Origin: Candidatus Lustribacter sp.
GTDB lineage: Bacteria > Vulcanimicrobiota > Vulcanimicrobiia > Vulcanimicrobiales > Vulcanimicrobiaceae
Direction of reading: 5' to 3'
Assembly: GCA_965277805.1 (NCBI GenBank)
Contig: OZ255842.1
Coordinates: forward strand, 2,112,001 to 2,176,000
DNA length: 64,000 bases
Each line of letters opens with the position of its first letter. Position 1 is the stretch's first letter. The position numbers were made by a program, and so were the translations under genes. The notes under the pieces were generated by a model that was not told the origin of the DNA, ran no database searches, and saw nothing but the letters and a program-made list of their open reading frames with translations. This document shows, in pieces, positions 2,860 to 60,597 of the stretch.

Positions 2860-3717
2860 ATGGTTGACGTCATCCCCTACGGCCCGACGTTCGTCGCCGA
2901 AGTGCGCGGCATCGACTTCACGCAGCCCGTGAGCGACGCAACGGCACAGCAAGTTCACCAAGCGTTGATGGACCATAAAGTGCTGTTCTTCCGCGACGCC
3001 GAGATGACGCCCGAACAGCACGTCGCGTTCGGCAAGAAATTCGGTGAACTCACGATCCATCCGTTCGTGCCGCACCTCGAACACCTGCCCGAAGTGCTCG
3101 TCCTCGACAACCATCAAGACAACCCCGTCTTCTCCACCGACGTCTGGCATTCAGACGAAACGTTCCGCATCGATCCGCCGATGGGATCGATCCTGCGCTG
3201 CATCACGATCCCCGAACGCGGCGGCGACACGCTCTGGGCCGACATGGCCGCCGCCTACAGCGGTCTCAGCAGCAAGATGCAGCACCTGATCGACGATCTC
3301 GAAGCGATCCACGACTTTCAGAACTTCCGCCACAAGTTCGACGACCTCTCACCGCGCGAACGCCACGAACGCCTAGCAAAAATGGAAGAGGAACTCCCGA
3401 ACCCGACGCACCCCGTCGTCACCGCGCACCCAGCCACCGGTCAAAAAATTCTCTTCGTCAACCCTCAATTCACGCTCGCAATCAAAGGCATGTCGGAAAC
3501 CGAAAGCCGCGCACTCCTAACGCAGCTCTTCATGCAGGCAATGATCCCCGAATACCAGTTCCGCTTCCACTGGCAACCCAACTCCATGGTCTTCTGGGAC
3601 AACCGAGGCACCCAACACTACGCCGCCAACGACTACTACCCCAACCGCCGCACCATGCAAAGAGTAACCATAAAAACCGAACACCCCGCGCACGACCTAA
3701 AGTCATCCCGAGCTTGA
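2860..3717 (+). CDS. TauD/TfdA-family Fe(II)/2-oxoglutarate dioxygenase
   Basis: WHSD, GGDTLW, WDNRGTQHYA, R(x)MQR motifs; stop codon lies inside a REP copy. Confidence 0.92.
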   Translation: MVDVIPYGPTFVAEVRGIDFTQPVSDATAQQVHQALMDHKVLFFRDAEMTPEQHVAFGKKFGELTIHPFVPHLEHLPEVLVLDNHQDNPVFSTDVWHSDETFRIDPPMGSILRCITIPERGGDTLWADMAAAYSGLSSKMQHLIDDLEAIHDFQNFRHKFDDLSPRERHERLAKMEEELPNPTHPVVTAHPATGQKILFVNPQFTLAIKGMSETESRALLTQLFMQAMIPEYQFRFHWQPNSMVFWDNRGTQHYAANDYYPNRRTMQRVTIKTEHPAHDLKSSRA

Positions 3718-3730
3718 CGAGGGACCGCCA
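3702..3730 (+). repeat. REP-like element copy 1
   Basis: GTCATCCCGAGCTTGACGAGGGACCGCCA; one change creates the TGA ending the TauD-like gene. Confidence 0.9.
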
Positions 3731-3735
3731 CCATC

Positions 3736-4215
3736 TTGCCCACGAGATTCTCCGTCCGCCTACCACTCATGCTCGCGCTCCTCGGAGTCGCGCTCCAAGG
3801 CCGCGCCACAGCCGCCGTCCTCACCACCCACACGCAAACGTTCATCGGTGCCGAGGGCTCGTTGAAATTCCCAGGCGGCGTACCCCAGTGCGACACATCA
3901 GCAAAAGGCATCGACGCACTGACGCTCCCGGAGGCCACTCTCGCACCCACATCAGCAGCCACGCAGCTGGCGTGGACGCCCTCGGGTAGTCAATCGAGCG
4001 CGTACCAAATCACAGTAACCGATCCCACCGGCGCAGTCGCAACAACGTGGCAGATCGGCGCAAACTCAACCGCGCAAGTCTCGTTTTTCAAATCCGGCGA
4101 GCCGGCCGGCGCGTGGTCGCTCCGCGAGTCGGGACTTCCCTCGAGCATCTGCTCCAACGGCTCGCTCATGGGCAGCCCCGGCACCGCTACCGGCACCGCC
4201 GCCTGGTATCAGTAG
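3736..4215 (+). CDS. Secreted hypothetical protein
   Basis: Hydrophobic N-terminus with ATA/AA cleavage-like site; two Cys; start uncertain (3736 TTG or 3769 ATG). Confidence 0.6.
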   Translation: MPTRFSVRLPLMLALLGVALQGRATAAVLTTHTQTFIGAEGSLKFPGGVPQCDTSAKGIDALTLPEATLAPTSAATQLAWTPSGSQSSAYQITVTDPTGAVATTWQIGANSTAQVSFFKSGEPAGAWSLRESGLPSSICSNGSLMGSPGTATGTAAWYQ

Positions 4216-5153
4216 CTCACGAAACCGGCCGGTACGCCCGCTAACCCTTCTTCGATGTCCAGCGCGCAGCGCATGATCAGCGCGAGCAAATGGCTGCGGA
4301 CGAGCCGATAACCGCCGGTGATGTCGAGCACGCCCAGAATCGCCTGCGTATCCGGATCGCGGATCGGCGCCGCCGTGCACGTAAGGTGTTGCCAACCGTC
4401 GCAAAAATGCTCGGCGGCCATCAACTGCAACGGGCGGCCGTCGGCAAGCGCGGTCCCGATCGCGTTGGTGCCTGCGGCGCCTTCGCTCCAGTCGGCGCCC
4501 GCAACGAATTCAAGCCGCTCCAAGAGATGCACGACGGCACGATCGCCTTCGATGTGGAGTATTCGACCCGCACTGTCGGTCAACACGACGACATAGCCCG
4601 AACCGGCAAGGTGATCGACGAGAAAGGTCACCACCGGACGAGCCGCACGCAACAGCCGTTCGCTCGCAAGCAGCAAGTCATCGAGTTCCGCGGCGCGCGT
4701 GATCAACAGCGGTGCGATCGCGCGCGCCGCGTCAACGGCCGCAGCCCGGCTGCGCAGCCACGACGTCACGATGCGCGCGCGGCCGCCCGGTCGAAGTTCA
4801 CCCGTCTGGAGGAAGCGTTCGCGGATGCGCATCAAGTTGCGCGCGGTCTGCTCGATCTCGGCCGGTGTGGCGATCGACAACGCGATGCCCGGTGCGGCCG
4901 CAAGCGTGAGGATCTCCGGATTCGCCGTGATATCCACCGTCGACGCGCCCGCCAGACCGATGTCCGGCAGCGCCATGCGCAGCAGCCCGAGCCGGTCGGG
5001 AACGTCGAGCGCGAAGACGTCGGCCAGGCGGCCGGCCAGCGCCGCCGAGGCGTGTGACCCACCGGCTTCCAGCAACGCATACCACGTCCGGCTCACGCCG
5101 ACTGCCTCCGAGACCTCTTCCTGCGTCACCGGGCGCCCAACCCGCGAGGGCAA
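4209..5153 (-). CDS. XRE/MmyB-like HTH fused to AcoR-type GAF domain regulator
   Basis: VTQEEVSEAVGVSRTWYALLE HTH; WSExxAGTNAIGTAL...EHF...CTAAPIRDP...GVLDI GAF; frame stays open upstream to about 5273 without a canonical start. Confidence 0.8.
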   Translation of the reverse strand: MPSRVGRPVTQEEVSEAVGVSRTWYALLEAGGSHASAALAGRLADVFALDVPDRLGLLRMALPDIGLAGASTVDITANPEILTLAAAPGIALSIATPAEIEQTARNLMRIRERFLQTGELRPGGRARIVTSWLRSRAAAVDAARAIAPLLITRAAELDDLLLASERLLRAARPVVTFLVDHLAGSGYVVVLTDSAGRILHIEGDRAVVHLLERLEFVAGADWSEGAAGTNAIGTALADGRPLQLMAAEHFCDGWQHLTCTAAPIRDPDTQAILGVLDITGGYRLVRSHLLALIMRCALDIEEGLAGVPAGFVSY

Positions 5154-8933: not shown

Positions 8934-10019
8934 TTACCGCGAAGCGGAGAGAATCTCGACTTCTTTCTTCTGCCCTTCGAGCGCCTCGGGGTGCGCCGAC
9001 CACCAATTCATGTCGATCGTGGTGAACTTCACCCCGCTGCGCCGGTACGGCTCGAGAAACTGACTCGTCTTCGAGCCGGGAAGCATGTCGTTGTCCATGC
9101 GCATCGCGTCGTAAAACAGCGACTGCCCGGGCTGGCTCAACATGTAGAGCACGAACAGCACCGCGGCATTGGGGTGCGGCGTGTTCTTTGGAATCGCCAA
9201 GTAGTAGTAGCGGATCTGCGCGCCGTCGCTCGGGACGTAGAAGTTGACGGGCGCCCCCTTTTCCTTGAGCAAGCGCGGCCCTTGGCTCGAGCAGTCCTCG
9301 ACGAACGCCGCGTACTCGCCGCTGGCAATGCGATCGTCGTCGCCGCAGCGCACGAGGCCGGCCTGGAGTGAGACGAGCTTGCGCACCGCGTCGAGCGCTT
9401 TCGCTTGGCCCCAGAAATCGGTTGCCGAGAGCACGTCGAACCCGGACGCGTTCGGCGGCGTCGCGAGCTTACCGGTCCATTGCGGCGTCAGCAAGCCCTG
9501 GATCGTCGACGGCGGATGCGGCATCAGCGTCGGATTGTACACCACCACCGGAATCGACGTTCCCGTGCGAATGATCCGTCCGCCGCCTTCGATGAACGCG
9601 GGCGTGATGCGATGATCGCGCGCGAGCGACGGCCACGGCACGATGTAGAACATGTCGTGCGGCAAGAGCGGCGCGAGCGACTGCGCGGACGAAAACAGAA
9701 TGTCGCTCGACGATGGCTGCCCCGCGCTGAACTCGGTAAAGAGCTGATTTCCTTGCCGCGCCATCTCCGGGCCGGCCGCAAATCGATACGTCAGGTGCAA
9801 GCCCCAGAGCTTGTTGAACGCGTCCATATGCCGCCGCGCGACATCGGCATCGCCCATCACCGACGCGCTCCACGTCAGATCGATCGTCCCCTCGCGCGCC
9901 GCACCGGCGATGATCTCATTGAGATTCTTCCCAAGCTGGGCCCCCGACTGCGCCCGCACAGCAGACCCCATCAAAACCGCCAAAACAAGAAGCGTAGCGA
10001 ACCCGCGAATCCACCCCAT
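8934..10019 (-). CDS. Fe3+/thiamine-type ABC substrate-binding protein
   Basis: Signal peptide; GAAREG, YNP, PHPNAAVLFV; SD AGGAGG; divergent from permease and ATPase. Confidence 0.8.
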   Translation of the reverse strand: MGWIRGFATLLVLAVLMGSAVRAQSGAQLGKNLNEIIAGAAREGTIDLTWSASVMGDADVARRHMDAFNKLWGLHLTYRFAAGPEMARQGNQLFTEFSAGQPSSSDILFSSAQSLAPLLPHDMFYIVPWPSLARDHRITPAFIEGGGRIIRTGTSIPVVVYNPTLMPHPPSTIQGLLTPQWTGKLATPPNASGFDVLSATDFWGQAKALDAVRKLVSLQAGLVRCGDDDRIASGEYAAFVEDCSSQGPRLLKEKGAPVNFYVPSDGAQIRYYYLAIPKNTPHPNAAVLFVLYMLSQPGQSLFYDAMRMDNDMLPGSKTSQFLEPYRRSGVKFTTIDMNWWSAHPEALEGQKKEVEILSASR

Positions 10020-10038
10020 GCGATCCTCCTGACTGCTA

Positions 10039-10067
10039 TGTCATCCCGAGCTTGTCGAGGGACCGCC
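10039..10067 (+). repeat. REP-like element copy 2
   Basis: TGTCATCCCGAGCTTGTCGAGGGACCGCC in the divergent spacer. Confidence 0.92.
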
Positions 10068-10096
10068 GCGATCCTTGCCAAACCGACCCAACGGTA

Positions 10097-11818
10097 ATGA
10101 AAGACGCGGTATTGCCACGTCCGCGGAAGCGCGGCGGCGATCGTTCATTCGTCGTCGCGACCGGCGTCTTGGTCGCGATCGGCTCAGCGCTGATCCTCTG
10201 CCTGCTCGCGATCCTCGTGGCGCAAAGCCTCTCATCCAGCAGCAACTACGCCAACCTCGCCAGCCCCGCCGTCGTCCGCATTCTCCTCAATTCGGTCGAG
10301 CTCGCGGCGATCGCAACGGTTGTCGCCTTCTTCTTCGCGCTGCCCATCGCATGGCTCGTCGAACGCACAAACGTGCAAGGCAAAGCCGCAATCGTCAGCA
10401 TCATGCTCGTATCGATGCTTGTCCCCGGCTTCGCAATCGCCATGGGCTGGCTATTCTTACTCCACCCGCAGATCGGCTTGATCAACCGCCTCTCCGCCGC
10501 AGCCTTCGGCCCCTCGCACCCGGTACTCAACGTCGTCACGATCACCGGCATGGGCATCATCATGGGCTTCCAGCTCGCGCCGGTTGCGTTTCTGATGGTC
10601 AGCGCCGCACTGCGCTCGCTCGACTACCGGTTGGAAGAGGCCGCATCGATCGCCGGCGCTCCCGACGTCGCAGCGATTCGCCGCATCGTATTGCCCCTGA
10701 TCCGGCCGGCACTCGTGTCGTCGGCCATCTACGTGTTCATCATCGCGTTCGGCACGTTCGACGTTCCCGCCATCATCGGCTGGGGCAACCGCATCTTCAC
10801 CTTCAGCACCTACGTCTACCTCACAACGAATCCGCAAGCCGGCTTGCCCGATTACGGACGGGCCGGCGCGTTGAGCGTCGCCGTGCTGGGCGCCGCACTG
10901 CTGCTCACGGTCTGGTCGCGCTACCTCTCGCTCGACACCAAACGGTTCGCGGTGGTCTCGGGCAAAGGCTATCAGACCACGCAGCTCGCGCTCGGGCGCT
11001 GGGCGTTCCCGGCTTACGCGTTCGTCGCCGTCTACCTCATCATCGGCATCTTGCTTCCGCTGGCCATCGTGCTGTGGGAATCGTTTCTGCCGTTCGTGCA
11101 GCCGATCTCGGCGACGGCGCTGCACGTCGCGAACCTCGCCAACTACAACGCCATCTTCGGCGACGCGTTCTTCAGCGGGCTCGCCAACAGTGCGCTCTTG
11201 ATGCTCGTCGTGCCGCCGATCGTGCTCATCTTCAGCTTCGCCTTCTCCTGGATCGGCTTTCGCACGCAGCTGCGCGGGCGCGCCCTGCTCGACGGCATCG
11301 CATTCTTGCCGCACGCCGTCCCGAGCGTCATCATGGCCGTCGGCGTGATTCTACTCTCGCTCTATGGGCTCAACCATGTCGTCCAACTCTATGGGACGAT
11401 TTGGATCATCGTGCTGGCCTATAGCGTCAGCTGGGTGAGTTACGGTACGCGCATGACGAACTCGGGTTTGCTGCAACTCTCGCGCGAACTCGAGGAATCC
11501 GCGAACGTGAGCGGAGCGAACACCTGGGCGACGGTGCGGACGATCGTGCTGCCGCTGATCGCGCGCACGCTTTCGCTTGCCTGGGTGTATCTGGTAATCC
11601 TCGCCGGCCGCGAACTCACGCTCGCCGTGTTGCTGACGACGCCGGGAAACACGACCGTCCCCGCGTTCGTGTGGATTACGTGGCTCAACGGCGGCCTCAC
11701 CCGCGGCGCCGCTGCCACGGTGTGTTACCTCATCTGCCTCTCGCCGCTCATCGTCGGGTACAGCTTTCTGCTCAACCGCACGCGCCGTTCAAGCACCACC
11801 GTCGGGAGCCCGGTATGA
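10097..11818 (+). CDS. FbpB-type ABC permease (two fused halves)
   Basis: About 12 TM segments; two EAA loops (LEEAASIAGA, LEESANVSGA). Confidence 0.9.
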   Translation: MKDAVLPRPRKRGGDRSFVVATGVLVAIGSALILCLLAILVAQSLSSSSNYANLASPAVVRILLNSVELAAIATVVAFFFALPIAWLVERTNVQGKAAIVSIMLVSMLVPGFAIAMGWLFLLHPQIGLINRLSAAAFGPSHPVLNVVTITGMGIIMGFQLAPVAFLMVSAALRSLDYRLEEAASIAGAPDVAAIRRIVLPLIRPALVSSAIYVFIIAFGTFDVPAIIGWGNRIFTFSTYVYLTTNPQAGLPDYGRAGALSVAVLGAALLLTVWSRYLSLDTKRFAVVSGKGYQTTQLALGRWAFPAYAFVAVYLIIGILLPLAIVLWESFLPFVQPISATALHVANLANYNAIFGDAFFSGLANSALLMLVVPPIVLIFSFAFSWIGFRTQLRGRALLDGIAFLPHAVPSVIMAVGVILLSLYGLNHVVQLYGTIWIIVLAYSVSWVSYGTRMTNSGLLQLSRELEESANVSGANTWATVRTIVLPLIARTLSLAWVYLVILAGRELTLAVLLTTPGNTTVPAFVWITWLNGGLTRGAAATVCYLICLSPLIVGYSFLLNRTRRSSTTVGSPV

Positions 11819-12903
11819 TCTCGATTACCGACCTGCAGCAAGTCTACCGCGACGGCGCGACCACGCACGCGGCGCTGCGCGGCGTGAGCGTCGACGTTGC
11901 CGCCGGCGAATTCCTGGCGCTGCTCGGACCGAGCGGCTGCGGCAAAACGACGCTGCTGCGCTGCATCGCCGGGTTGACGGAACCCGAAAGCGGCACGATC
12001 GCAATCGACGGCGAGACCGTGTACTCCGCAACGGAGCAGATCAACGTCCCTGCGCGCATGCGCGACATCGGCATGGTGTTCCAGTCATACGCGATCTGGC
12101 CGCACATGACGGTCGCGCAAAATGCTGCGTTTCCGCTGCGCTACCGGCGCCCCGAACTCAACCCAACCCAAGTCCGCGAACGCACGGCCGAGGTCCTACG
12201 GCTCGTGCATCTCGACGCCCTAGCCGAACGCCCCGCGCCCGCGTTGAGCGGCGGTCAGCAGCAGCGCCTAGCGCTCGCGCGCGCCCTGATTTCCGACCCG
12301 AAGGTGCTGCTGCTCGACGAGCCGCTGAGCAACCTCGACGCGCGCTTACGCGAAGAGATGCGCTTCGAGCTGCGCGCGCTGACAAAACGCCTCGGCGTGA
12401 CGACCATCCTCGTGACGCACGAGCAAGCCGAAGCGCTGAGCCTCGCCGACGTCGTCGCGGTCATGGACGACGGCCGCTTCATGCAAATCTCGAGCCCGCG
12501 CGAACTCTACGACCGCCCGCGCACGGAATTCGTCGCCGGCTTCGTCGGCCGTGCGAACCTGATCCCTGCCGAAGTCATCGCCGGCGCCGTCAACGGTTCG
12601 CCCCAGTGGGTCTCCGTCTCAACCCCCTACGGCATCGTCGAATGCTACACCGAACGCCCGCGCACCACCGGCGAACGCGCCACCCTAGCCGTCCAACCCG
12701 AATCAATATCCATCGCACCACCAAGCGACGGCACCGCAATCGGCACGATCGAAGGCGCAGCCTTCATCGGCGACGCCACCGAACTCGTCATCCGCATAAA
12801 CGAATCAATCCTAATCGCCAAAGTAACCACCGCCAACGCCCCCGCACCAGGCGCGACCGTAACAATCCGTATCCAATCCCAAACGTGCACGTTACTGAAT
12901 TAG
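11815..12903 (+). CDS. ABC ATP-binding protein (FbpC/PotA type, C-terminal TOBE)
   Basis: GPSGCGKT, LSGGQQQR, LLLDEP; ATGA overlap with permease. Confidence 0.93.
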   Translation: MISITDLQQVYRDGATTHAALRGVSVDVAAGEFLALLGPSGCGKTTLLRCIAGLTEPESGTIAIDGETVYSATEQINVPARMRDIGMVFQSYAIWPHMTVAQNAAFPLRYRRPELNPTQVRERTAEVLRLVHLDALAERPAPALSGGQQQRLALARALISDPKVLLLDEPLSNLDARLREEMRFELRALTKRLGVTTILVTHEQAEALSLADVVAVMDDGRFMQISSPRELYDRPRTEFVAGFVGRANLIPAEVIAGAVNGSPQWVSVSTPYGIVECYTERPRTTGERATLAVQPESISIAPPSDGTAIGTIEGAAFIGDATELVIRINESILIAKVTTANAPAPGATVTIRIQSQTCTLLN

Positions 12904-12942
12904 CAACGCTTCACTGAATTAGCAAGGCAGACGCCCCCCAAC

Positions 12943-12971
12943 TGTCATCCCGAGCTTGTCGAGGGACCGCC
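12943..12971 (+). repeat. REP-like element copy 3
   Basis: Consensus copy between convergent genes. Confidence 0.92.
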
Positions 12972-12991
12972 ACCATCGCGCCCGCTAGGCG

Positions 12992-13975: not shown

Positions 13976-14003
13976 CCCGAAAGATTCGCCCGCAGGCCCC
14001 TCC

Positions 14004-14032
14004 TGTCATCCCGAGCTCGTCGAGGGGCCGCC
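14004..14032 (+). repeat. REP-like element copy 4
   Basis: TGTCATCCCGAGCTCGTCGAGGGGCCGCC; contains the MFS stop codon. Confidence 0.9.
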
Positions 14033-16823: not shown

Positions 16824-16852
16824 TGTCATCCCGAGCTTGTCGAGGGACCGCC
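16824..16852 (+). repeat. REP-like element copy 5
   Basis: Consensus copy; contains the Rieske oxygenase stop codon. Confidence 0.92.
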
Positions 16853-40459: not shown

Positions 40460-40472
40460 TGAATCAACGGGC

Positions 40473-42157: not shown

Positions 42158-42211
42158 GTCAACTTTGAAAGGGGAGCCCTGCGTCTGCGGCGCGTACTTT
42201 AACGCCGTCCG

Positions 42212-42727: not shown

Positions 42728-42735
42728 TTTTCGCC

Positions 42736-46072: not shown

Positions 46073-46153
46073 GCTTCCTCCCACGGGTCCGGCCCGATTC
46101 ATTAAGACATATATGATTTGACTTTTAATAGTTGATGTGTGTATTATTTACTT

Positions 46154-46621: not shown

Positions 46622-46685
46622 GGCAGCAAATCCCGCCCGCTAAACGATCAGGAGGGGCGACGAACGCGACAGGGGGCGGTAAACG

Positions 46686-50463: not shown

Positions 50464-52376
50464 GCACTGTCATCCCGAGCTTGTCGAGGGACCGGCCAAC
50501 CGTTATTCGCGAGAAACTTCGACGGCACGAACAGCGGCATCCCATCCTCCCACATGCTATCCGTGAGCGGCCGCTTTCCACTTCCGTCGGCATTCATCAC
50601 CCAAATCTGCCCATACGGCTGGAACGTCGCATCGTAGAGCGTCGCCTCATTCCGGAATCCATACGACCCGGTGTTATAGGCAAGCTTCCCATCCCACGTC
50701 CAAACCGCGTGCGCGTTGTTCGCGCCGCCACTCGTCAACTGCGTCAGTCCCGTCCCGTCCGGCCGTATCGTATACACGTCGAACGACGTATACGTCACCT
50801 TGCGCGTGAATGCGATCAGCTTCCCATCCGGCGACCACTGAGGCAGGTTGTCGAACTGGTTCGTCAGCTCGCGAATATTGCGGGTCTGCAGATCGAGGAT
50901 GCGCAGCCCGCCGCTGGTTTCATTCCAAACGCGAAAAACGATATACCGGCCATCGGCACTATAACTCGGAAAGCCGGCGTTGATCGAGGCATCGGTCAGC
51001 GCCTCCGCACCCGAGCCGTCGCGTCGGCAGCGCCACAACACGGCCTTGCCGGTTGCACGCGCCGTAAGAAATCCGCCGACGCCGAATGCAAGCCACTCCC
51101 CGTCGGGTGACCACGCCGGCTGAAACGCTCCCGCCTGCCCCCGCGCCAGCATTTGCGGGTCTTGCCCGTGATCGACGGGATCGTATACCTTTCGCTTCGT
51201 CGTTGAATCGTAGTTCATGAGCACGACGGACGAGTCACCGAGTTGTTTCTGCGTGATCACCATCTCGCCGTTGCGCGAGAGCGCCGGGAAGACGTCGGTA
51301 TGGCGGTATTCCCAGCCGGGATCCCAGCCGTAGAGCTTCTTGCCGAACGGTCGGACCGGATTCATGCTCTGCTTTTCGTACACGACAAGCTTGCCGTCGG
51401 GTGACCATGCTGGAGAACGCAGCTGCCGCTTCAGCGGCGCTACCGCCGCCGAACTATAGGCGAGTCCCTCATCGGGGGTGTACTTTACTTGCCACGCAAG
51501 CAGATCGGGTGCCAGCCAATGCGGTGCCAGACGCAAACCGGGGCCTTGGCTGTGCTCAAGCCGCGCGCCGGTGTCCACGTTGACCGACACAATCTGCGAG
51601 GCCACTTTGCCCGCAGCTTCGGGACGATGCGCGCCCCACGTGCCTTCGGTCGTGATCTCGTAGTACGCGATACGCGTGCCGTCCGGCGACCACGCGGGCG
51701 AACCCAAGCTGAATCCCGGCTTGGTCGCTACCTGGCGAAAGCCGCTGCCGTCGGGCCGGATCACGTAGATGCTCAGCTCTTGCGTGTTCTCCCAGCCCTT
51801 ACCGTCGTCGTGGCCGCGCCACGCGGTGTTGCGGTCACTCGAGAAGGCAATCCACGTACCGTCGGGCGACCAAGCCGGTTTGAAAAAGCCGTCAGGTTTC
51901 GTCTGATCGCCCTGCACTTGCTTCGCACCGGTCAGGTTGCGCAGCCGCCCCGTGGCGATATCCATCGTCCAGATATTTGCGCGGTAGGTGTCACGCGTCG
52001 ACACGAACGCCAGCGTCCGACCGTCGGGCGACATCGCCGCGCCGTCCTCGACGGCCGGGCTCGCCGCGAGCGGCCGCATATTCGAACCGTCGAGATCGCA
52101 GCGAAAGATATCCGCTTGCCCGTCGCCGCTACGCTCGGACGTAAACACGATGCCGCGGCCGTCGGGCGTAAAGCGCGCGTGATAGTCGAAGCCGATCGTC
52201 GGAAGCAGCTTGCGCTCGCCCGAACCGTCGGCATTCGCAATGTACAGATCGGACACCGTCGGCGCGATGCGATTCATGTACATCACGCCGAGTTTCGCCG
52301 GCTGCGCCTGCGCCGGCGCGGCTTGCATCGCCAATGCCGTCAGCGGCACGGCTGAAATAAACGTGCGACGATCCAT
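50460..52376 (-). CDS. Tat-exported TolB-like (PD40 repeat) double beta-propeller protein
   Basis: MDRRTF Tat motif; many P.WSPDG repeats; C-terminus reads through a REP. Confidence 0.85.
   Translation of the reverse strand: MDRRTFISAVPLTALAMQAAPAQAQPAKLGVMYMNRIAPTVSDLYIANADGSGERKLLPTIGFDYHARFTPDGRGIVFTSERSGDGQADIFRCDLDGSNMRPLAASPAVEDGAAMSPDGRTLAFVSTRDTYRANIWTMDIATGRLRNLTGAKQVQGDQTKPDGFFKPAWSPDGTWIAFSSDRNTAWRGHDDGKGWENTQELSIYVIRPDGSGFRQVATKPGFSLGSPAWSPDGTRIAYYEITTEGTWGAHRPEAAGKVASQIVSVNVDTGARLEHSQGPGLRLAPHWLAPDLLAWQVKYTPDEGLAYSSAAVAPLKRQLRSPAWSPDGKLVVYEKQSMNPVRPFGKKLYGWDPGWEYRHTDVFPALSRNGEMVITQKQLGDSSVVLMNYDSTTKRKVYDPVDHGQDPQMLARGQAGAFQPAWSPDGEWLAFGVGGFLTARATGKAVLWRCRRDGSGAEALTDASINAGFPSYSADGRYIVFRVWNETSGGLRILDLQTRNIRELTNQFDNLPQWSPDGKLIAFTRKVTYTSFDVYTIRPDGTGLTQLTSGGANNAHAVWTWDGKLAYNTGSYGFRNEATLYDATFQPYGQIWVMNADGSGKRPLTDSMWEDGMPLFVPSKFLANNGWPVPRQARDDSA
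50468..50494 (+). repeat. REP-like element copy 7
   Basis: TGTCATCCCGAGCTTGTCGAGGGACCG inside the 3' end of the propeller gene. Confidence 0.92.
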
Positions 52377-52484: not shown

Positions 52485-53279
52485 TTATCGCTGGGGCAAG
52501 CGCGCCTCGTAGCCCTCCCAGGGCTTATCCGGCTTTTGCTCGGTGTCGTAGGCCGCCCGTTCGGCAGCGTTGAGAACGACCAGATGCCGACTGAGCGCCA
52601 GCGCGGCCATCTCGGCGCGCGCGTCAATATCGGTATAAATCGCCCGGACGGTGGCTTCTTTCACGCTCGGCCCGACGATCGTATCGCCGTGCCCGCGCAT
52701 CAAGACGACGGGGTTTTCGCCAAGCGCACGCGCCAACGCATCGCCGGTCGCCGCATCGCGCACGAGCATCCCTTTCTCAACGCCCGGAACGTTCCGTATT
52801 TCGAAGACGGGCGTAACGTCCGGCAGAAAGCCCGCTTGTCCAATAACCGGACGAAGCGGCGTGCCGCTGATCGGCAGCGGCAACACCGCCGGATCGTGCG
52901 TGTGGATCACCGACACCACATCCGGTCGCGCCAAATAAATGCGGCAATGAATGAAGCGTTCACCATTGAGCTGCACTGCCGAACGATTGACGGTCTCGCA
53001 CGTGGCGGCATCGAGCTCGACGATGTCACCACGCTGCACATCCCCCGGCGAAATCGCGCGCGGCATGAAGAGATGCTGCGGATTCTTGACCGAACGCACC
53101 GACGCATGCCCCCGGCTATCCATGACGCCCTCGTTCGCAAGAATGTGACTCGCCGTAATGAGATCCTGAATATTCGCTTCATCCGGATCACTCGCCACCG
53201 CCTGCTGCTGAGCCGAACCAACCCGCACCATTAGCGCAAGAACCAACAAAGCAATCAAAGCAACAGAACGCAAGCGCAT
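52485..53279 (-). CDS. Class II aldolase/adducin-fold protein with signal peptide
   Basis: MRLRSVALIALLVLALMVRVGSA; ERFIH..IY.AR.DV..VIHTH; LMRGHG. Confidence 0.85.
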   Translation of the reverse strand: MRLRSVALIALLVLALMVRVGSAQQQAVASDPDEANIQDLITASHILANEGVMDSRGHASVRSVKNPQHLFMPRAISPGDVQRGDIVELDAATCETVNRSAVQLNGERFIHCRIYLARPDVVSVIHTHDPAVLPLPISGTPLRPVIGQAGFLPDVTPVFEIRNVPGVEKGMLVRDAATGDALARALGENPVVLMRGHGDTIVGPSVKEATVRAIYTDIDARAEMAALALSRHLVVLNAAERAAYDTEQKPDKPWEGYEARLPQR

Positions 53280-53285
53280 TTTTTC

Positions 53286-53398
53286 TGTCATCCCGAGCTT
53301 CACTTTTGTCATCCCGAGCTGCATCTTTGTCATCCCGAGCCGCATCTTTGTCATCCCGAGCCGCATCTTTGTCATCCCGAGCTTGTCGAGGGACCGCC
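53286..53398 (+). repeat. Tandem array of four 21-bp half-REP units followed by full REP copy 8
   Basis: TGTCATCCCGAGC starts at 53286, 53307, 53328, 53349 and 53370. Confidence 0.95.
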
Positions 53399-53423
53399 AC
53401 AATCCCTCATTACGCAAGAACCG

Positions 53424-54155
53424 TTACGAAAACGCTTTCACCAAGAGCGCAATCCCAATCACGACCATAAACACAACAAACGCAAGCCGCAACTGACGCT
53501 CCGGCAAGCGATGCGCAAGATCAACCCCGAACCGCACCGCAAACACCCCGCCAACCGCCAGCGGCACCGCGACTCCCCAATCGACATCACCCTTCGACGC
53601 ATAGGCAAACGTCGTCAACGTACCCGACAAGACTGAGAACGCAAGCGACATCCCTTGCGCCGCGACCTGCGTGTAGCCAAAGAGCATCGTCATCGCCGGA
53701 ACGGCAACGATCGCACCGCCAATCCCAAACAGCCCGGAGCAGACCCCACACACCGCGCCGACAACACCGACAAACGGCCACGGCAACACCGCCACCGTTT
53801 CCGGCGTGCGGCGAGACAACGCCCGGCGCGCGATGTCGATCGCGATCAAAATGAGAAAGACGGCGAATCCGATGCGCAGTTCGCGGCTTGCAAGCGAGGT
53901 CGCGAAGAGCGCGCTCGCATACGTAAACGGCAGCGCGGTCACCCCAAGCAGCGCCGCCGCCCGCACATCGAGACCGACCTTCTGCGCATACCCCACCAAC
54001 GCGATGATGACATTCGGCATCGCCATGACGAGCGCCGTGCCTTGCGCGAGCTGCTCCGTTAAGCCAAAGACGATCCCGAGCGCCGGGATTGCGAGCGTCG
54101 CCCCGCCGATACCGAAGAGGCCGCCCAAAAAGCCGCAGAGTCCGCCGAGCACCAC
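53424..54155 (-). CDS. TauE/SafE-family membrane protein
   Basis: Two GLFGIGG repeats, AQGT/MSL, 8 TM. Confidence 0.9.
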   Translation of the reverse strand: MVLGGLCGFLGGLFGIGGATLAIPALGIVFGLTEQLAQGTALVMAMPNVIIALVGYAQKVGLDVRAAALLGVTALPFTYASALFATSLASRELRIGFAVFLILIAIDIARRALSRRTPETVAVLPWPFVGVVGAVCGVCSGLFGIGGAIVAVPAMTMLFGYTQVAAQGMSLAFSVLSGTLTTFAYASKGDVDWGVAVPLAVGGVFAVRFGVDLAHRLPERQLRLAFVVFMVVIGIALLVKAFS

Positions 54156-55234: not shown

Positions 55235-56476
55235 ATGAGCACGACGCAACCCCGCCCCACCGCTTCGTACGACGTCGGCGGCGTGAACCTGCCGCGTCCG
55301 TTCCGCGTCCGCCGCATCGGCCACTTAGGGATCAATGTCGACCGCATGGACGAGCAGTTGGAGTTCTACACCAAGCGACTCGGGCTGCGCGTCTCAGACC
55401 CGCTCAACTTCGGCCAGCGCCTGCCGCCTGAAGAGCAGGTAAAGCACAAATATCACACCGGCTACTTCCTGCGCCACGGTACCGACCACCACTCGTTCGT
55501 GCTCTTCCCGCGTTCGACGTACGAAGCGATGGCCGCGATGCGCGGCGGACGTTCCGATTCCCGCGTCACGACGAACCAGATCACGTGGCAAGTCGGCAGC
55601 TTGCGCGAAACCGTCGACGGCGCCGCGTATCTCGAGGAACACGGTTCGCACGTCACGCGCACCGGGCGCGATACGCCGGGTTCGAACTGGCACGTCTATC
55701 CGCTCGGCCCTGAGAATTTCGTCAACGAACTCTACTACGGCATTGAACAGATCGGCTGGGACGGCGAGAGCAAGCCCGAAGCGATGCATCAGATCAAGTA
55801 CACCGAAGCACCGCCGCTGCCGCATCGCTCCGAGTCGGCCGAAATCTTGGCCGCCACGGCCGCCGGCGTCGACATCGCATCGGGCGTGCGCACGTTCGAA
55901 ACCGAGGAAGAACGCTACGACGTCAGCGGCATCTTGCTCGGCCGTCCGTTCAAAGTCACGCGCGTCGGACCGGTGCGCCTCTTCCTCGAAGACGTCGCCG
56001 CGGCCATCCCGTTCTACCGCGACGTCTTAGGCCTCGCCGTTACGGAAGAGGTCACCTGGAACGGACATCGCTGCGTGTTCCTTCGCGCCAACACCGAACA
56101 CCACTCGATTGCGCTCTATCCCGTCGCCCTGCGCGACGAACTCGGCCTACGCGCCGATAGCAAACTCTTCTCCATCGGCTTCCAAGTCGCCGACTACCGC
56201 CAGCTGCGCGATGCATTGCAATACTTCCGCGACGCCGGCACAACCGTGCGCGAACTTCCCGTCGAATTATTCCCCGGCATCGACTACAGCGCGTTCGTCC
56301 TCGACGCCGACGGCAACGCCGTGCAGCTCTACTACTACATGGAGCAAATCGGCTGGGACGGAAAACCGCGCACCGCCGCGCAACGCCGCAAGGTCGTCCC
56401 CGGCGAATGGCCCGCATCCCTCGACGCCATGGGCGACACGTTCCTAGGCGAACCCTACCTCGGCCCCTGGGGCTAA
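55235..56476 (+). CDS. Duplicated VOC (extradiol-dioxygenase-like) protein
   Basis: Two repeats RPF.V.R.G...HHS...YY..EQIGWDG. Confidence 0.85.
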   Translation: MSTTQPRPTASYDVGGVNLPRPFRVRRIGHLGINVDRMDEQLEFYTKRLGLRVSDPLNFGQRLPPEEQVKHKYHTGYFLRHGTDHHSFVLFPRSTYEAMAAMRGGRSDSRVTTNQITWQVGSLRETVDGAAYLEEHGSHVTRTGRDTPGSNWHVYPLGPENFVNELYYGIEQIGWDGESKPEAMHQIKYTEAPPLPHRSESAEILAATAAGVDIASGVRTFETEEERYDVSGILLGRPFKVTRVGPVRLFLEDVAAAIPFYRDVLGLAVTEEVTWNGHRCVFLRANTEHHSIALYPVALRDELGLRADSKLFSIGFQVADYRQLRDALQYFRDAGTTVRELPVELFPGIDYSAFVLDADGNAVQLYYYMEQIGWDGKPRTAAQRRKVVPGEWPASLDAMGDTFLGEPYLGPWG

Positions 56477-56549
56477 AAAAGTGAGGCAAGAAGACACGCC
56501 TCGCGCCCACGGCCATCGGCTACTCAAGCGAACGTGACCTTTTTATCTC

Positions 56550-56593
56550 TGTCGTCCTGAGCGGAGCGCCGACGGGCGCGCAGACGAAGAACG
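56550..56593 (+). repeat. Second, longer REP-like element type (single degenerate copy)
   Basis: TGTCGTCCTGAGCGGA-GCGCC-GACG-GGCGC-GCAGACGAAGAAC; same 5' end pattern with an inserted hairpin. Confidence 0.6.
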
Positions 56594-56643
56594 CGAGAGC
56601 ATCTTGCATATGCGCCAGGGCAACGCCACGAACGGGCAGTGCG

Positions 56644-57408
56644 CTACCGAATCGCGCTACCCGCAGCCTTACAAGCACTACGTAACGCTGCCACCATCCG
56701 CGCCCGATCGCTCGTACGAAACCGGGCCTGCGGTCCCGAAATCGTCATCGCCCCACGCAGCTCACCAGTGCGACTCATCACCGCGCAGCTCAACGCATAC
56801 AATCCAGGCTCACTCTCCGCATCGTTGATGGCAAACCCGCGCTCGCGCACAAGTTGCAAATCCCGCAACAGCGCCGTCCGCGTGCGAATGGTCCGCCGCG
56901 TCAGCGCAGGCAACGCCTCACGCGGATAACGCTCGCGGACAGCAGCATCGCCCAGAACCGCAAGCATGGCCTTCCCACCCGACGTAGCGTGCGCCGCGAG
57001 CACCGTGCCGGTGCGATTCCCCGCTCGCAGCGCCCTCGTCGACTCCACCCCGCCAAGAAACACAACGTCGGCACCGCGCAGCGTACACACGTGCACCGTC
57101 TCGCCGAACGTCGACGCGAGCGTCTCCAAATGCGGTCGCACGGCACTCTGCACGTCATCGTTCGCCGCAACCACGCTGCCCAGCGCAACGAGCGCAGGCC
57201 CAGCATGGTAGGCCCGCGTGTTCTCGTTCTGCACGACAAACTCGAAGTGCGCCAACATCGCGAGCAACCGGTGCGCGGTCGAACGCGCGACGCCGAGGAG
57301 GCGGCTCGCTTCGGTAACCCCGATCGACGGCCGCTCCCGAAACTCCAGCAACAACTGGAGGGCATTACCGACCGCCTCGACCGGGTACCGCGGCGCCGTA
57401 TTCTGCAT
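56644..57408 (-). CDS. IclR-family regulator
   Basis: GVTEASRLLGVARSTAHRLL, GETVH, HATSGGKA.LA, RERGFAIN..E. Confidence 0.93.
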   Translation of the reverse strand: MQNTAPRYPVEAVGNALQLLLEFRERPSIGVTEASRLLGVARSTAHRLLAMLAHFEFVVQNENTRAYHAGPALVALGSVVAANDDVQSAVRPHLETLASTFGETVHVCTLRGADVVFLGGVESTRALRAGNRTGTVLAAHATSGGKAMLAVLGDAAVRERYPREALPALTRRTIRTRTALLRDLQLVRERGFAINDAESEPGLYALSCAVMSRTGELRGAMTISGPQARFRTSDRARMVAALRSACKAAGSAIR

Positions 57409-57995: not shown

Positions 57996-59563
57996 CCAAC
58001 CCCTACGACGTCATCGTCATCGGTGCCGGACCAACCGGCCTAGCCGCCAGCTTGTTTCTTCATGCGCACGGTGCGCGCGTGGCGCTGCTCGAACGCGAAG
58101 CTGCGACCGTCGTAGAACCACGCGCCGTCACCCTCGACGACGAATCGATGCGTGCGATGGCGACCCTCGGGCTCATCCCGCAACTGCAGCCGCTCATCTT
58201 ACCGGGTTACGGCACGCGCTGGTACACCGGCACCGGCCGCGAGCTGGCCCGCGTAAGCGCCAACGCGACGCGCTACGGTTACGGTTGCCGCAACGGCTTC
58301 TCGCAACCGGATTTCGTGAATCTGCTGGCGCGCACGCTGGCCGAACGCGCCGAGGTGCGCTTCGAGACGACGGTGACGTCGGTCGAACAAGACGCGGACG
58401 GCGTCACGGTGAAAACACGCGGAACGGACGGCTGGCCCCAGACCTATCGCGCCCGCTATGCCATCGCGTGCGACGGCGCCGCCTCGCCGATCCGCGAGGC
58501 CCTCGGCATCCAACTCGAAGGCGACACGCACGCCCAGCCGTGGCTCATCGTCGACACCATCAACTCAACCGAGACCGATCGCTACTCGAAGTTCTACTGC
58601 GGCAACCCACGCCCGTACGTCGCGGTGCCGGGCCGCGACGGCCGGTTGCGCTACGAATTCATGTATTTGCCCGGCGAAGATCCCGAGCAGATGCGCAGCG
58701 CCGACGACGTGCGCCGCTGGCTGCAAGGCCGCCGCGATCTGCCCGATGCGGACATCATCCGCATCGCACCCTATCGCTTTCACTCGCGCGTGAGCCCGCG
58801 CTGGCGATCCGGCCGCCTCTTCTTCGCCGGCGACGCGGCGCACCTGATGCCGCCGTTTGCCGGCCAAGGCATGAACGCCGGCATTCGCGATGCGTTCAAC
58901 CTCGGCTGGAAGCTCGCGCAAGTCGTACGCGGCCATGCCGGCGACGCGTTACTCGACACGTACGAGCGCGAACGCAAACCCCATGTGCGCGCGATGCTCA
59001 AGCTTTCCGAGATCATCGGCACCGTCGTCATGTCGCGCGACTCGACTGCGGCGAGGGCACGTGACGTCTTCCTCGGCACGGCCCGCCACGTCCCCGGCCT
59101 GCGCGAGTACATCGCCGAAATGCGTTTCAAACCGAAAGCCAGCTACCGCGACGGCTTCGTCCACAACAAAGGCCCGCTCGCGCACCTCACCGGACGGCTC
59201 GCGCCGAACCCAATGGTCGTCGACGACCAAAACATCCCGCGCCGCCTAGACGACGTCCTCGGCGACGGCTTCGCTCTGCTCTCCATCAGTGCATCCGGCA
59301 ACCCGATCGCACCGCAAACCACATCACCCTTGCTGGCAGCCCTCAACCCCCGCCACGTGCGCCTGTGCTCAGGCGAATTCATCGCGCTACCGCATCCCGG
59401 CTGCGTCTCAGTCGCCGATACTTACGCCGCCTTCGCCCGCGAGCTCGCCCTAAATCGCGACGCCATCATCCTCATCCGCCCCGACCGCGTAATAGCCGCC
59501 GCCACTCCTGCCAAAAATTTCCCCGCCGCCGAACAAAACCTAACCCGCACCTACTCCCAGTAG
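57992..59563 (+). CDS. MhpA-like FAD-dependent aromatic hydroxylase
   Basis: GAGPTG, PRAV.LDDE, ACDGAAS.IR, GDAAHLMPPFAGQGMNAGIRDA.NL.WKL. Confidence 0.9.
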   Translation: MTNPYDVIVIGAGPTGLAASLFLHAHGARVALLEREAATVVEPRAVTLDDESMRAMATLGLIPQLQPLILPGYGTRWYTGTGRELARVSANATRYGYGCRNGFSQPDFVNLLARTLAERAEVRFETTVTSVEQDADGVTVKTRGTDGWPQTYRARYAIACDGAASPIREALGIQLEGDTHAQPWLIVDTINSTETDRYSKFYCGNPRPYVAVPGRDGRLRYEFMYLPGEDPEQMRSADDVRRWLQGRRDLPDADIIRIAPYRFHSRVSPRWRSGRLFFAGDAAHLMPPFAGQGMNAGIRDAFNLGWKLAQVVRGHAGDALLDTYERERKPHVRAMLKLSEIIGTVVMSRDSTAARARDVFLGTARHVPGLREYIAEMRFKPKASYRDGFVHNKGPLAHLTGRLAPNPMVVDDQNIPRRLDDVLGDGFALLSISASGNPIAPQTTSPLLAALNPRHVRLCSGEFIALPHPGCVSVADTYAAFARELALNRDAIILIRPDRVIAAATPAKNFPAAEQNLTRTYSQ

Positions 59564-59575
59564 TCGCCCCCAACT

Positions 59576-59604
59576 TGTCATCCCGAGCTCGTCGAGGGAC
59601 CGCC
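59576..59604 (+). repeat. REP-like element copy 9
   Basis: TGTCATCCCGAGCTCGTCGAGGGACCGCC between convergent genes. Confidence 0.92.
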
Positions 59605-59610
59605 ACAATT

Positions 59611-60597
59611 TCAGGTATCGAGCATACTCGGAGCAAAAATCTCTTCGAGCCGCACGATGTGATCGGTCAAACCTTGCTCGTGCAGATACATAGCGATCGT
59701 TTCGAGCACGTGACGATTGCTCCGCACCCCATAAACCGTCGGGTCCGAAGCCAGCTCCGCAGCATCGACAGCTCCCACCTGCAGATACGGTTCCAGCAGC
59801 GCGGATCGCTGCCGCGCGTTCTCCGCCTGCACCGCAACGAACGCGTCATACATGCTCGCCACCACCCACGGATCGCGCTCCGCAACCGTTCGCCGCACCA
59901 CCATGCAATGATTGATCGGAAACGTCCCGCTCTTCGCAAAATAGCGCCGGCCTTCAGCAACCGGGTCCGGAAACAACGTGCGCACCTCAGATCGCGTCTT
60001 GAAGTCGATCGTGCTGCGGTCAACATCATTCCCACGCGGTGAGTAGAACAGCACGGCATCAAGCCCGCCGTCGACCAGCATCTCTCCGAGGTTCGTCGCA
60101 ACCGGGATATACGTCAGCCGGATTCCGGGCGGAGGCGTAAAGCCCGTCGCGCCGCCATGGCTCGTCTCGGGATTGCGTTCCATGAACCACTCCATGTCCG
60201 CCGGCGCAACACCGAACTCGTGCTCCAGCACGCCACGCACCCACACGACGCCCGTCTGTTGAAACTCCGGAACGCCCACCCTCTTGCCGCGCAGATCGGC
60301 GGGCTGCTCGATCCCGGCAGCCGTGCGCACGAAGATCCCGGTGTGAAAGAACCGTCGCGCCGTAAACACCGGAAACCCGACAAAATCCGTTGGACCATGC
60401 GAGGTCGCAATCATGAACGACGCGATCGACATATCCGAAACGTCGAACTCCGCGCCTTTCAGCTGCCGCGCAAAGATCTCACCGGGCGAAAGCGCGATCG
60501 ATTCGAGTTCGATGCCGTCCGGGACGATCCGCCCCTCGAGCAGCGCCCGCGAGCGCACGTTCTCGGCGAAGGCCGCGCGTAACTTCAGCGTGCTCAA
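59611..60597 (-). CDS. 4,5-dihydroxyphthalate decarboxylase-like protein
   Basis: EFDVSDMS, PVF..R.FFH, DLRGKRVGVPEFQQT..VW.RG.L, FPINH, YLHEQGL. Confidence 0.85.
   Translation of the reverse strand: MSTLKLRAAFAENVRSRALLEGRIVPDGIELESIALSPGEIFARQLKGAEFDVSDMSIASFMIATSHGPTDFVGFPVFTARRFFHTGIFVRTAAGIEQPADLRGKRVGVPEFQQTGVVWVRGVLEHEFGVAPADMEWFMERNPETSHGGATGFTPPPGIRLTYIPVATNLGEMLVDGGLDAVLFYSPRGNDVDRSTIDFKTRSEVRTLFPDPVAEGRRYFAKSGTFPINHCMVVRRTVAERDPWVVASMYDAFVAVQAENARQRSALLEPYLQVGAVDAAELASDPTVYGVRSNRHVLETIAMYLHEQGLTDHIVRLEEIFAPSMLDT

Follow-up and report, generated by a model that had tools for sequence, protein, structure and literature searches.

We analysed a 64,000-nucleotide stretch of contig OZ255842.1 from Candidatus Lustribacter sp. 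(assembly GCA_965277805.1, positions 2,112,001 to 2,176,000), hereafter the window (G000:C1:2112001-2176000). It carries nine loci of a short interspersed repeat of the repetitive extragenic palindromic (REP) kind, and near these loci the + strand turns A/C-rich and G/T-poor in tracts that we refer to as halos. Genome-wide, the strand carrying the repeat becomes A/C-rich and G/T-poor at silent sites over ~200 bp (e-fold) on the 5′ side of the repeat, independently of gene strand and replication direction. These data suggest a DNA process, not described so far, that acts on one strand and in one direction at sites marked by the repeats.

The source genome (G000) is a single contig of 5.53 Mb with 64.3% G+C and is 95% complete by marker genes. 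Gene coordinates come from a home-made caller that scores open reading frames (ORFs) and returned 4,692 genes (87.7% coding), without curated annotation. Because a purely codon-based version of this caller missed several halo genes, the final version was weighted on amino-acid composition. Raw skew denotes the amino-keto skew (A+C−G−T) in 300-bp bins, with a genome standard deviation (SD) of 0.071, and third-position excess denotes the third-codon-position skew minus the genome mean for each gene strand. The terms 5′ side and upstream are oriented by the repeat.

Repeats and halos in the window

The nine loci, all on the + strand, lie among the ordinary transport and catabolic genes (by Pfam) of the 2.10-2.23 Mb region. 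The first copy, in the short form (3702..3725), contains the stop codon of a TauD-family ORF (2800-3717, Pfam TauD). Its halo reaches to both sides (3001..4200, island 3201-3967), with a raw skew of +0.17, +0.28, +0.31 and +0.17 in successive bins, the two highest at 3301-3900. Two + strand ORFs lie under it, the TauD-family gene with its 3′ half and ORF 3736-4215, which is missing at the corresponding place in the close relative G003. The TauD-family ORF reads into the repeat and ends at a TGA within it (3702-3717); the G003 orthologue ends earlier, with the repeat ~50 bp further on, so the repeat has remodelled the C terminus of the protein.

A second short-form copy (10040..10063) sits between two divergent genes, a binding-protein gene (8934-10019, −) and a permease gene (10097-11818, +). 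Here the halo (9800..10800, +) lies mainly at third positions, with 200-bp bins of +0.48, +0.25, +0.52, +0.34 and +0.36; the same bins in the relative G004 read +0.05, −0.05, −0.01, −0.04 and +0.06. The strongest halo of the window (12400..14000, +) surrounds the short-form copy at 12944..12967, which lies between convergent genes and whose orthologous site is short in G004 and long in G003. Its third-position skew is +0.43, +0.88, +0.58, +0.64, +0.46, +0.18, +0.40 and +0.41 in G000, against +0.25, +0.29, +0.11, −0.07, +0.01, −0.12, +0.01 and +0.07 in G004, and the raw skew is +0.34 at 12601. The halo spans the 3′ end of an ABC ATPase gene (+) and the entire gene 12992-13975 (−). Two further short-form copies follow, one at a synteny break with both G003 and G004 (14005..14028) and one at a synteny break with G003 (16825..16848). 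At the latter the halo is weak (+0.07), as the earlier note on this DNA, made from the letters alone, had remarked for position 16824.

The copy at 31855..31878 is a GTCACCCC variant located inside the long ORF 30732-32678 (−). The N-terminal part of this 648-residue ORF matches the LigD primase-polymerase domain, and the ORF may be two genes fused by the caller. The halo extends to both sides (30901..32700, +; island 31765-32304), with a skew of +0.17, +0.25, +0.13, +0.25, +0.21 and +0.13, the maxima lying at 31201 and 31801. Around the short-form copy at 50469..50492, which marks another synteny break with G003, the halo is mainly 5′ (49801..50700, +), with +0.15, +0.13 and +0.19 followed by +0.04. 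The locus at 53287..53394 is a tandem array of four 21-nt units followed by a full short-form repeat from 53371. Over 53265-53394, each array unit combines the repeat's left half with a spacer resembling CATCTT, and G003 has a plain long-form copy at this site. This halo (53101..54100, +) is strongest 3′ of the repeat, with +0.15 followed by +0.37 and +0.28 at 53401-54000; its island (53256-54005) peaks at +0.41 and overlies a TauE-family gene (53424-54155, −, Pfam). The last copy, of short form, lies between convergent genes (59577..59600) and is flanked by halo on both sides (59101..60600, +), with a skew of +0.23 at 59101, then +0.21, +0.19, +0.13 and +0.12.

Three halos in the window lack a repeat, at 21.9-22.5, 24.0-25.2 and 56.1-57.3 kb. 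The second (24001..25200, +) has a skew of +0.13, +0.15, +0.21 and +0.11; in G003, 96 bp that include a long-form repeat are inserted precisely at the junction orthologous to 24711/24712. In the third (56101..57300, +), with +0.17, +0.15, +0.21 and +0.17 over an IclR-family gene (−, Pfam), no copy was found in G000.

A block of 14 kb (32780..46850) is free of both repeats and halos. It is absent from G003, which joins 32708 straight to 46680, and is bounded by 63-nt direct repeats (32717-32779 and 46851-46913, 90% identical). This arrangement resembles the outcome of an insertion or deletion between the starts of paralogous genes. Within the block, the AT skew reaches +0.29 at 36001-37000 and +0.25 at 43001-44000 and the GC skew is flat, an asymmetry unlike that of the halos.

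The halos are a silent-site signal far beyond chance

The earlier note had rested on hand counts, and all six are exact: A49 C64 G26 T21 at 3541-3700; G in 46/240 at 12661-12900, 35/180 at 13021-13200 and 31/180 at 53401-53580; and G in 22/60 and 26/60 in the two controls. The rare codons that it quoted are likewise present in the sequence. Among genome windows of 180 bp, 0.1% have a G fraction of ≤0.195 (mean 0.321, SD 0.036). Six of the seven strong islands (≥0.27) in the window contain a repeat copy.

The signal is carried by third positions, with values up to +0.88 in a 200-bp bin at 12600, while codon positions 1 and 2 are weak. Since positions 1 and 2 are nearly flat, we rejected amino-acid composition as the cause. 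Within ≤500 bp of the nine repeat loci the third-position excess is 0.404. Random sets of nine drawn from the 62 gene junctions of the window give 0.124 ± 0.045, and none of 10,000 permutations reaches 0.404; the 52 repeat-free junctions give 0.077. The observation is thus confirmed as real. The halo is present whichever strand the gene lies on, as had been claimed (for example over 12992-13975 and 53424-54155, both −), and the statement that the 32.8-46.6 kb block is free of it is borne out by an excess of 0.053 there. Among 5-mers, no halo-specific binding motif was found; the most enriched were generic CG-rich coding words.

At four-fold degenerate sites in halos, G falls from ~0.42 to 0.22-0.32 and T from 0.078 to ~0.045, while C rises from 0.44 to 0.56-0.61 and A from 0.07 to 0.12-0.17. 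Such an amino/keto pattern is typical of mutational strand bias and is known from replication skew.

A sequencing or assembly artefact can be dismissed: the changes are synonymous in intact ORFs, halos recur at the orthologous sites of G003, and the 5′ halo is found in four records of metagenome-assembled genomes (MAGs). Three read runs, which may be the source sample, contain 99-100% of the sampled words; among the runs listed for this DNA there is no RNA run.

Halos follow the orientation of the repeat across the genome

A pattern search found 232 copies of the repeat in the genome. Oriented by the repeat, the third-position excess on the 5′ side is +0.35, +0.22, +0.12 and +0.09 in four 100-bp bins and ~0 by 600 bp. 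Outside the special region described below, the decay is exponential with a length of 203 bp (standard error 26). The mean over the upstream 300 bp is +0.221 (n=208/230 repeats with enough sites; 82% positive, p=1.9e-34). The sign flips with the orientation of the copy: in the three nearest 5′ bins, the 112 ‘+’ copies outside 2.0-2.3 Mb give +0.35/+0.21/+0.12 and the 97 ‘−’ copies +0.32/+0.19/+0.09. Repeat-free gene 3′ ends are weak, the last 100 bp exceeding the gene body by only ~+0.035 (3,708 genes with the nearest repeat >1 kb away). The skew at repeats is ~10 times stronger, and a general gene-3′-end effect is thereby rejected. The earlier note had named three outcomes that would count against its proposal, namely skew that does not decay with distance, does not flip with orientation, or is equally strong at repeat-free gene ends. 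All three were examined and none was found, and the results on distance, orientation and gene ends speak in favour of a repeat-anchored, oriented effect.

Solo repeats (115/211 copies outside 2.0-2.3 Mb) allowed the geometry to be separated from neighbouring copies. With the upstream gene co-oriented with the repeat, successive bins from the repeat are +0.37, +0.20, +0.10 and +0.08; with the gene in the opposite direction, they are +0.21, +0.13 and +0.10. The halo is therefore not tied to transcription. In either geometry the 3′ side is ~0. An opposite-sign signal on the 3′ side, seen at −0.16 in the class in which repeat and gene converge, vanished for solo repeats and was due to inverted partner copies. 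Replication direction does not account for the halo either: it is +0.28/+0.12 where the repeat strand is the G/T-rich strand of the replichore (n=81) and +0.34/+0.25 where it is the A/C-rich strand (n=102). The skew minimum falls at the position of the genome's only ParB_N match (4.27 Mb), in support of the origin assignment. Among extreme silent-site islands (≥0.45), 37/55 have a repeat within ≤300 bp, compared with about 6% expected; sequence no more than 750 bp from a repeat makes up 5.7% of the genome.

The 130-kb region at 2.10-2.23 Mb, which includes the window, behaves differently. All its 17 copies are ‘+’, both sides of the repeats reach +0.4 to +0.5, and the baseline is offset by +0.12. 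The two-sided, kilobase form of the halo is confined to this plastic region. The earlier description of halos running several hundred bp to about 1 kb on both sides thus holds for the window; elsewhere the halo lies on the 5′ side of the repeat only.

Substitutions near repeats are directional

The window was aligned with G003 (~92% identical), with G004 (80-89%) as outgroup, giving 1,238 third positions near a repeat locus (≤600 bp) and 1,105 far from one (>1,500 bp). The near positions have a skew of +0.397 in G000, +0.394 in G003 and +0.082 in G004, the far positions one of ~0 in each genome. On the pooled terminal branches, G>A on the + strand exceeds C>T near repeats by 3.8-fold per site (59/458 vs 18/528, p=1e-7; far 1.84). 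G>C exceeds C>G by 2.3-fold (32 vs 16, p=0.006; far 0.95) and C>A exceeds G>T by 3.0-fold (14 vs 4, p=0.056; far 0.96). For T>C against A>G the ratio is 0.68 and not significant (11/110 vs 21/142; far 0.56), and no depression of A>G is seen near repeats (0.148 vs 0.144 per site). The excess of G>A, G>C and C>A on the + strand means that the complementary strand loses C (to T and G) and G (to T), so that the classes in excess on the − strand are C>T, C>G and G>T.

The earlier note had invoked C-to-T and A-to-G deamination of an exposed − strand. The C>T part of this claim agrees with the 3.8-fold excess of G>A on the + strand; A>G on the − strand is not raised on the terminal branches. Its sole trace is in an unpolarised deeper comparison, where T in G004 faces C in the ingroup 60 times and the reverse 10 times. 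The same note had called the repeats local mutators. A directional substitution bias near repeats is indeed present; the rise in rate is modest, with 184/2476 third-position changes near repeats and 132/2210 far from them on terminal branches (~1.24-fold), which speaks for a biased spectrum and less for a burst of change. Among the G>A changes, 87/129 have A or T as the 3′ neighbour, vs 81/191 for unchanged G; this preference is suggestive only, as neighbouring codons confound the comparison.

Relatives and turnover of the repeats

G004, a short-read assembly, has short-form repeats at the orthologues of 12944 and 14005. At these two sites its 5′ halo is weak (+0.25 to +0.29) and its 3′ halo absent, whereas G000/G003 reach +0.88/+0.85 and +0.64/+0.70. 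The repeats are shared by all three genomes and the halo is strong only in G000 and G003, so the intense halo arose with the repeats already in place. Several G004 contigs end at or near the places of G000 repeats (loci L003, L057 and L060); the repeat probably breaks short-read assemblies.

Across seven species, as far as the alignment goes, the skew at the 3′ end of the TauD-family gene (2800-3717) tracks the presence of the repeat downstream. In the last 300 nt, the third-position skew is +0.60 in G000, +0.66 in G003 and +0.40 in G006, all with a downstream repeat, and +0.28 in G004, for which the data are partial. It is +0.20 in G007, +0.12 in G002 and +0.04 in G005, where no repeat was seen by eye in the alignment, which extends ~90-100 nt past the gene, with no pattern search.

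Outside G000, the exact 30-mer of the repeat was found only in four MAG records, assigned to Candidatus Eremiobacteraeota, Vulcanimicrobiota (two) and Candidatus Lustribacter sp., so the repeat belongs to one genus-level group of the phylum. From these records we took 41 loci and, after removal of duplicates, used sites with ≥1 kb of DNA to either side. The raw skew in the 200 bp 5′ of the repeat is +0.107 in one record (42 sites, p=7e-7) and +0.097 in the other three (27 sites, p=4e-5); on the 3′ side there is nothing in any record.

Synteny between G000 and G003 breaks at or beside repeats (3692|5246, 14016|14034, 16842 and 50460|53385), and blocks between repeats are reshuffled or missing between the two genomes. 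G004 joins 14032 directly to 15772 across a repeat. In G003, all 11 copies in the 100 kb examined share one orientation. At 5/7 orthologous sites the form of the repeat differs, being short in G000 and long in G003, and the spacer is unalignable beside flanking genes that are ~92% identical. This combination points to concerted replacement of repeat copies in place. Together with the synteny breaks, it marks the repeats as sites of DNA turnover. The G003 long-form sites are the orthologues of 3702, 12944, 14005, 16825 and 53371; their inner hairpins are nearly identical, and G004 has the short form at two of the sites.

The repeat family

The family is built of GTCATCCCGAGC, then either TT or an inner hairpin of ~20 nt, then GTCGAGGGACCGCCAC. 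The short form reads GTCATCCCGAGC-TT-GTCGAGGGAC followed by CGCCAC, and the copy at 3702 reads GTCATCCCGAGC-TT-GACGAGGGAC followed by CGCCAC; in the long form the inner hairpin takes the place of TT. The 232 copies comprise 133 short and 99 long forms, with 133 on the + and 99 on the − strand; the same search of the reversed genome returned 4. Copies are mostly intergenic (186/232 lie outside called genes) and mostly at gene 3′ ends, with some inverted pairs and compound elements. In tandem gene contexts 34 are co-oriented and 42 anti-oriented with the genes, that is, without orientation bias. Short-form copies fold no better than shuffled sequences (z +1.4, +0.36, +1.9 and −0.03), and the long form has an inner GCGCC...GGCGC stem, seen by eye. 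The window has no match to any Rfam family. A search for other interspersed families to serve as a control returned none, the other frequent 14-mers being (GCC)n-type coding words.

A second element of 28 nt has 28 copies genome-wide, 27 of them within 150 bp of a repeat; compound elements resembling bacterial interspersed mosaic elements (BIMEs) therefore exist. From 1.0 to 2.75 Mb, repeat orientation is biased (69 ‘+’ vs 18 ‘−’, summed over 250-kb bins). At 3.0-4.0 Mb, on the same replichore, the two orientations are roughly equal in number, which makes this bias regional and not replichore-wide.

A proposed directional DNA process and its alternatives

We put at about one in two the probability that each of the 232 copies is the site of a strand- and direction-specific process acting at the DNA level, with an intense, two-sided form in the 130-kb region. 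The complementary strand would be repeatedly opened or rebuilt from the repeat towards the repeat's 5′ side. Three routes can be envisaged: a nick in the complementary strand, or a structure there, leading to extension or to gap formation and resynthesis; loss of the repeat strand by degradation, which lays its complement bare; or displacement of the complementary strand as single-stranded DNA, for example by an R-loop whose transcript begins at the repeat and extends leftwards. All three would fit the side and strand affected and the C>T/C>G/G>T spectrum, and nicking at the repeat, which the earlier note had offered as an example, is a candidate among them. In the plastic catabolic region, where repeats are co-oriented at cassette junctions, the process would be more intense and extend at least 1 kb on both sides, possibly because repeat-associated DNA transactions are more frequent there. 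A wider reading, which we hold only tentatively, is that the interspersed repeats could be heritable, oriented local mutators, with some machinery of the host or the element recoding 0.2-1 kb of neighbouring genes at silent and partly at amino-acid sites, independently of the REP-associated tyrosine transposase (RAYT).

The earlier note had suggested looking for a RAYT/HUH or GIY-YIG nuclease gene flanked by the repeats; none was found in the searches made. The Y1 transposase profile PF01797 had no match at E ≤ 0.001 in the genome, the same profile matching 6/14 control genomes, and the reverse transcriptase profile PF00078 (RVT_1) likewise had no match in the genome. The five PF00589 (Phage_integrase) matches lie at 0.81, 1.53, 4.85 and 4.94 Mb, none near 2.1-2.2 Mb. 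Neither of two GIY-YIG matches falls within a repeat-bracketed interval, interval membership being all that was compared. Five genes picked from inverted pairs that tightly bracket a single called gene are of the housekeeping kind (CheW, IGPD, Dioxygenase_C, PseudoU_synth_2 and Meth_synt_2).

Several points weigh against a directional DNA process. The largest compositional change is from G to C, which is not a simple deamination product, and T>C on the + strand is not raised on terminal branches. Forward substitution classes are raised ~1.8-fold, and some of the reverse ones are slightly reduced (C>G 0.030 vs 0.040 and G>T 0.009 vs 0.015 per site); mutation and selection are not separated, and a fixation bias would give the same substitution pattern. 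G004 shows that a repeat alone is insufficient for an intense halo, and a process running in one direction would not predict halos of the same sign on both sides, as seen in the core region. Copies more diverged from the consensus do not have stronger halos (Spearman −0.06, p=0.55, n=95), so a scar that accumulates slowly around an ageing insert is not shown. The short form is not a stable hairpin, and the profile searches and the five bracketed genes yielded no candidate enzyme, with no Y1_Tnp or RVT_1 match, integrases far away and no nuclease among the five. Finally, the substitution data come from one window and two closely related lineages, and the gene calls are home-made rather than curated.

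The main rival, which we regard as unlikely, is selection on RNA. A C-rich, G-poor tract could act as a Rho-utilisation-like or unstructured RNA zone in transcripts with the sense of the repeat strand, with the repeat as a pause or 3′-end structure and silent sites recoded by selection. The principal change, more C and less G on the repeat strand, is what such a zone calls for; the tract is one-sided and upstream in the sense of the repeat, and the slight lowering of some reverse substitution classes also fits. In addition, intrinsic-terminator-like sites in window positions 1-20000 do not exceed shuffled sequence (20 vs 18.9), so factor-dependent termination may dominate. Ribosomes, however, keep Rho off translated RNA, and the strongest halos lie inside translated ORFs (+0.37 with gene and repeat co-oriented), where the RNA should be shielded. 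Repeat orientation is free of the upstream gene in tandem contexts (34 vs 42), and the halo also runs antisense to gene 5′ ends (+0.21) and covers the whole of the opposite-strand genes 12992-13975 and 53424-54155. The fall in T and rise in A are not predicted by a requirement for C over G, and A>G is not depressed near repeats. In the available text of two reports, REPs of Escherichia coli are linked to Rho-dependent 3′ ends and to nearby changes in the C/G ratio (PMC6061677; 10.64898/2026.03.23.713779), which favours selection on RNA; as far as the first of these describes it, the C/G rise in E. coli lies downstream of REPs and not upstream (PMC6061677).

A scan of window positions 1-20000 found no sigma-70-like promoter or intrinsic terminator at the repeats, with consensus models that may not apply to this phylum. 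Sigma-70-like promoters in the same 20 kb are fewer than in shuffled sequence (2 vs 3.4), and the termination and promoter signals of the lineage are probably non-canonical.

A regional cause may add to the two-sided halos of the window; as the overall explanation we consider it distinctly unlikely. It holds that 2.10-2.23 Mb acquired strand asymmetry through a past of its own, for instance as an element replicated or transferred separately or in one direction, or through unusually strong transcription of one strand, with the repeats only modulating the outcome. The 50-kb mean excess here is +0.12 to +0.16, compared with ~±0.05 or less in most other blocks (one at +0.11 and one at −0.10), and the baseline offset of +0.12 agrees with this. 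So do the uniform orientation of all 17 repeats with same-sign skew on both sides, the 1.84-fold excess of G>A over C>T even far from repeats in the window, and the cassette-by-cassette rearrangement among G000, G003 and G004. Within the region, however, the skew is still centred on repeats (0.404, against 0.077 at the 52 repeat-free junctions) and the 14-kb repeat-free block is flat (0.053). The region also carries no plasmid or conjugation marker among the three families searched (ParB_N matches only at 4.27 Mb, T4SS-DNA_transf has no match, and there is no integrase).

Reverse causality appears improbable: mobile repeats would insert or survive just 3′ of pre-existing A/C-rich tracts, for instance tracts that are unstructured as single-stranded DNA, and would merely mark the halos. 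Halos are no weaker at consensus-identical, presumably young copies (+0.232, n=17) than at diverged ones (+0.182, n=26), the halo at 24.0-25.2 kb has a repeat in G003 and none in G000, and the 18/55 extreme islands that lack a repeat within 300 bp point the same way. Against this, in-place copy replacement can explain young-looking copies at old sites. Repeat-free extreme islands are, moreover, rare when set against the ~6% of islands expected to carry a repeat, so that A/C-rich tracts have no evident origin apart from the repeats. From a peak at the edge of the repeat the skew falls monotonically, the repeats at 12944 and 14005 are present in G000, G003 and G004 with the halo growing later in G000/G003, and substitutions near repeats on terminal branches are still directional.

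A symmetric double-strand break with 5′ resection, Chi-like or chronic, does not fit. It would give mirror-image skew with loss of C from the 3′-ended strand; the halo of solo repeats is one-sided, the two sides in the core region have the same sign, and it is the strand running 5′>3′ towards the repeat that gains C, a sign opposite to what damage to the 3′ tail would produce.

Should the halos be mutational, short REP-type repeats would be fixed points of a strand- and direction-specific DNA transaction rather than passive insertions. That transaction would shape codon usage, protein C termini and the local evolutionary rate of the genes nearby. REP-like elements, long debated, would gain a new activity open to direct test, and strand asymmetry would have a third source beside replication and transcription. 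If selection on RNA is responsible instead, the tracts would represent an unusual way to end or silence transcripts in an uncultured phylum. Halo tracts also distort codon-usage gene finding, the detection of horizontal transfer and skew-based origin prediction.

Comparison with known systems

Full-text literature searches, with supplements outside their scope, returned no description of a repeat-anchored local skew in prokaryotes, and no oriented flanking mutation halo was found for REPs in literature searches. A 2023 review of strand asymmetries names replication, transcription, repair and repeat orientation; in the portion available, repeat-anchored local skew is absent.

Diversity-generating retroelements and other recoding driven by reverse transcriptase are rejected, as PF00078 has no match. 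Integron attC arrays share co-orientation and position at junctions with the repeats described here; there is no integrase nearby, the segments measure 1-18 kb, and genes lie on both strands.

As in replication-associated strand asymmetry, in which the leading strand is G/T-rich, the halos show amino/keto asymmetry at silent sites, and the one-strand excess of C>T fits damage to exposed single-stranded DNA. Unlike replication skew, they are local (~200 bp), anchored to repeats and independent of the replichore, and they reach +0.4 to +0.9, compared with ~0.04 for the replichores of this genome.

Eukaryotic zones of GC skew and R-loops, and strand-coordinated mutation clusters near breaks, resemble the halos in their one-strand C>T and C>G changes over hundreds of bases, to the extent that the source describes them (PMC10030826). 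The halos differ in being bacterial and in reflecting a steady evolutionary bias (~1.24-fold), with no deaminase or break shown.

Like Rho-dependent terminators and the C>G bias at E. coli REPs, as given in the available text, the halo is a C-rich, G-poor tract beside a REP-like element with a defined polarity (PMC6061677; 10.64898/2026.03.23.713779). In the 300 bp 5′ of the repeat, four-fold sites have C at 0.56-0.61 and G at 0.22-0.32, as a Rho-loading tract of ~80 nt or longer upstream would require. Such a tract would also be untranslated and co-oriented with the gene; the halo is found 5′ of the repeat, within translated ORFs and in antisense position too, A and T are skewed as well, and repeat orientation is free of gene direction (34 vs 42).

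From REP and REP-doublet (REPIN)-RAYT systems the family differs in that the genome has no Y1/RAYT match, the short form folds no better than shuffled sequence, the long form showing an inner stem by eye, and the host belongs to an Eremiobacterota-type lineage. It shares with REP/BIME and REPIN-RAYT elements of Proteobacteria the hundreds of short interspersed copies, mostly intergenic and at gene 3′ ends, with inverted pairs and compound elements. As with REPs and REPINs, its copies differ between close relatives and sit at points of rearrangement.

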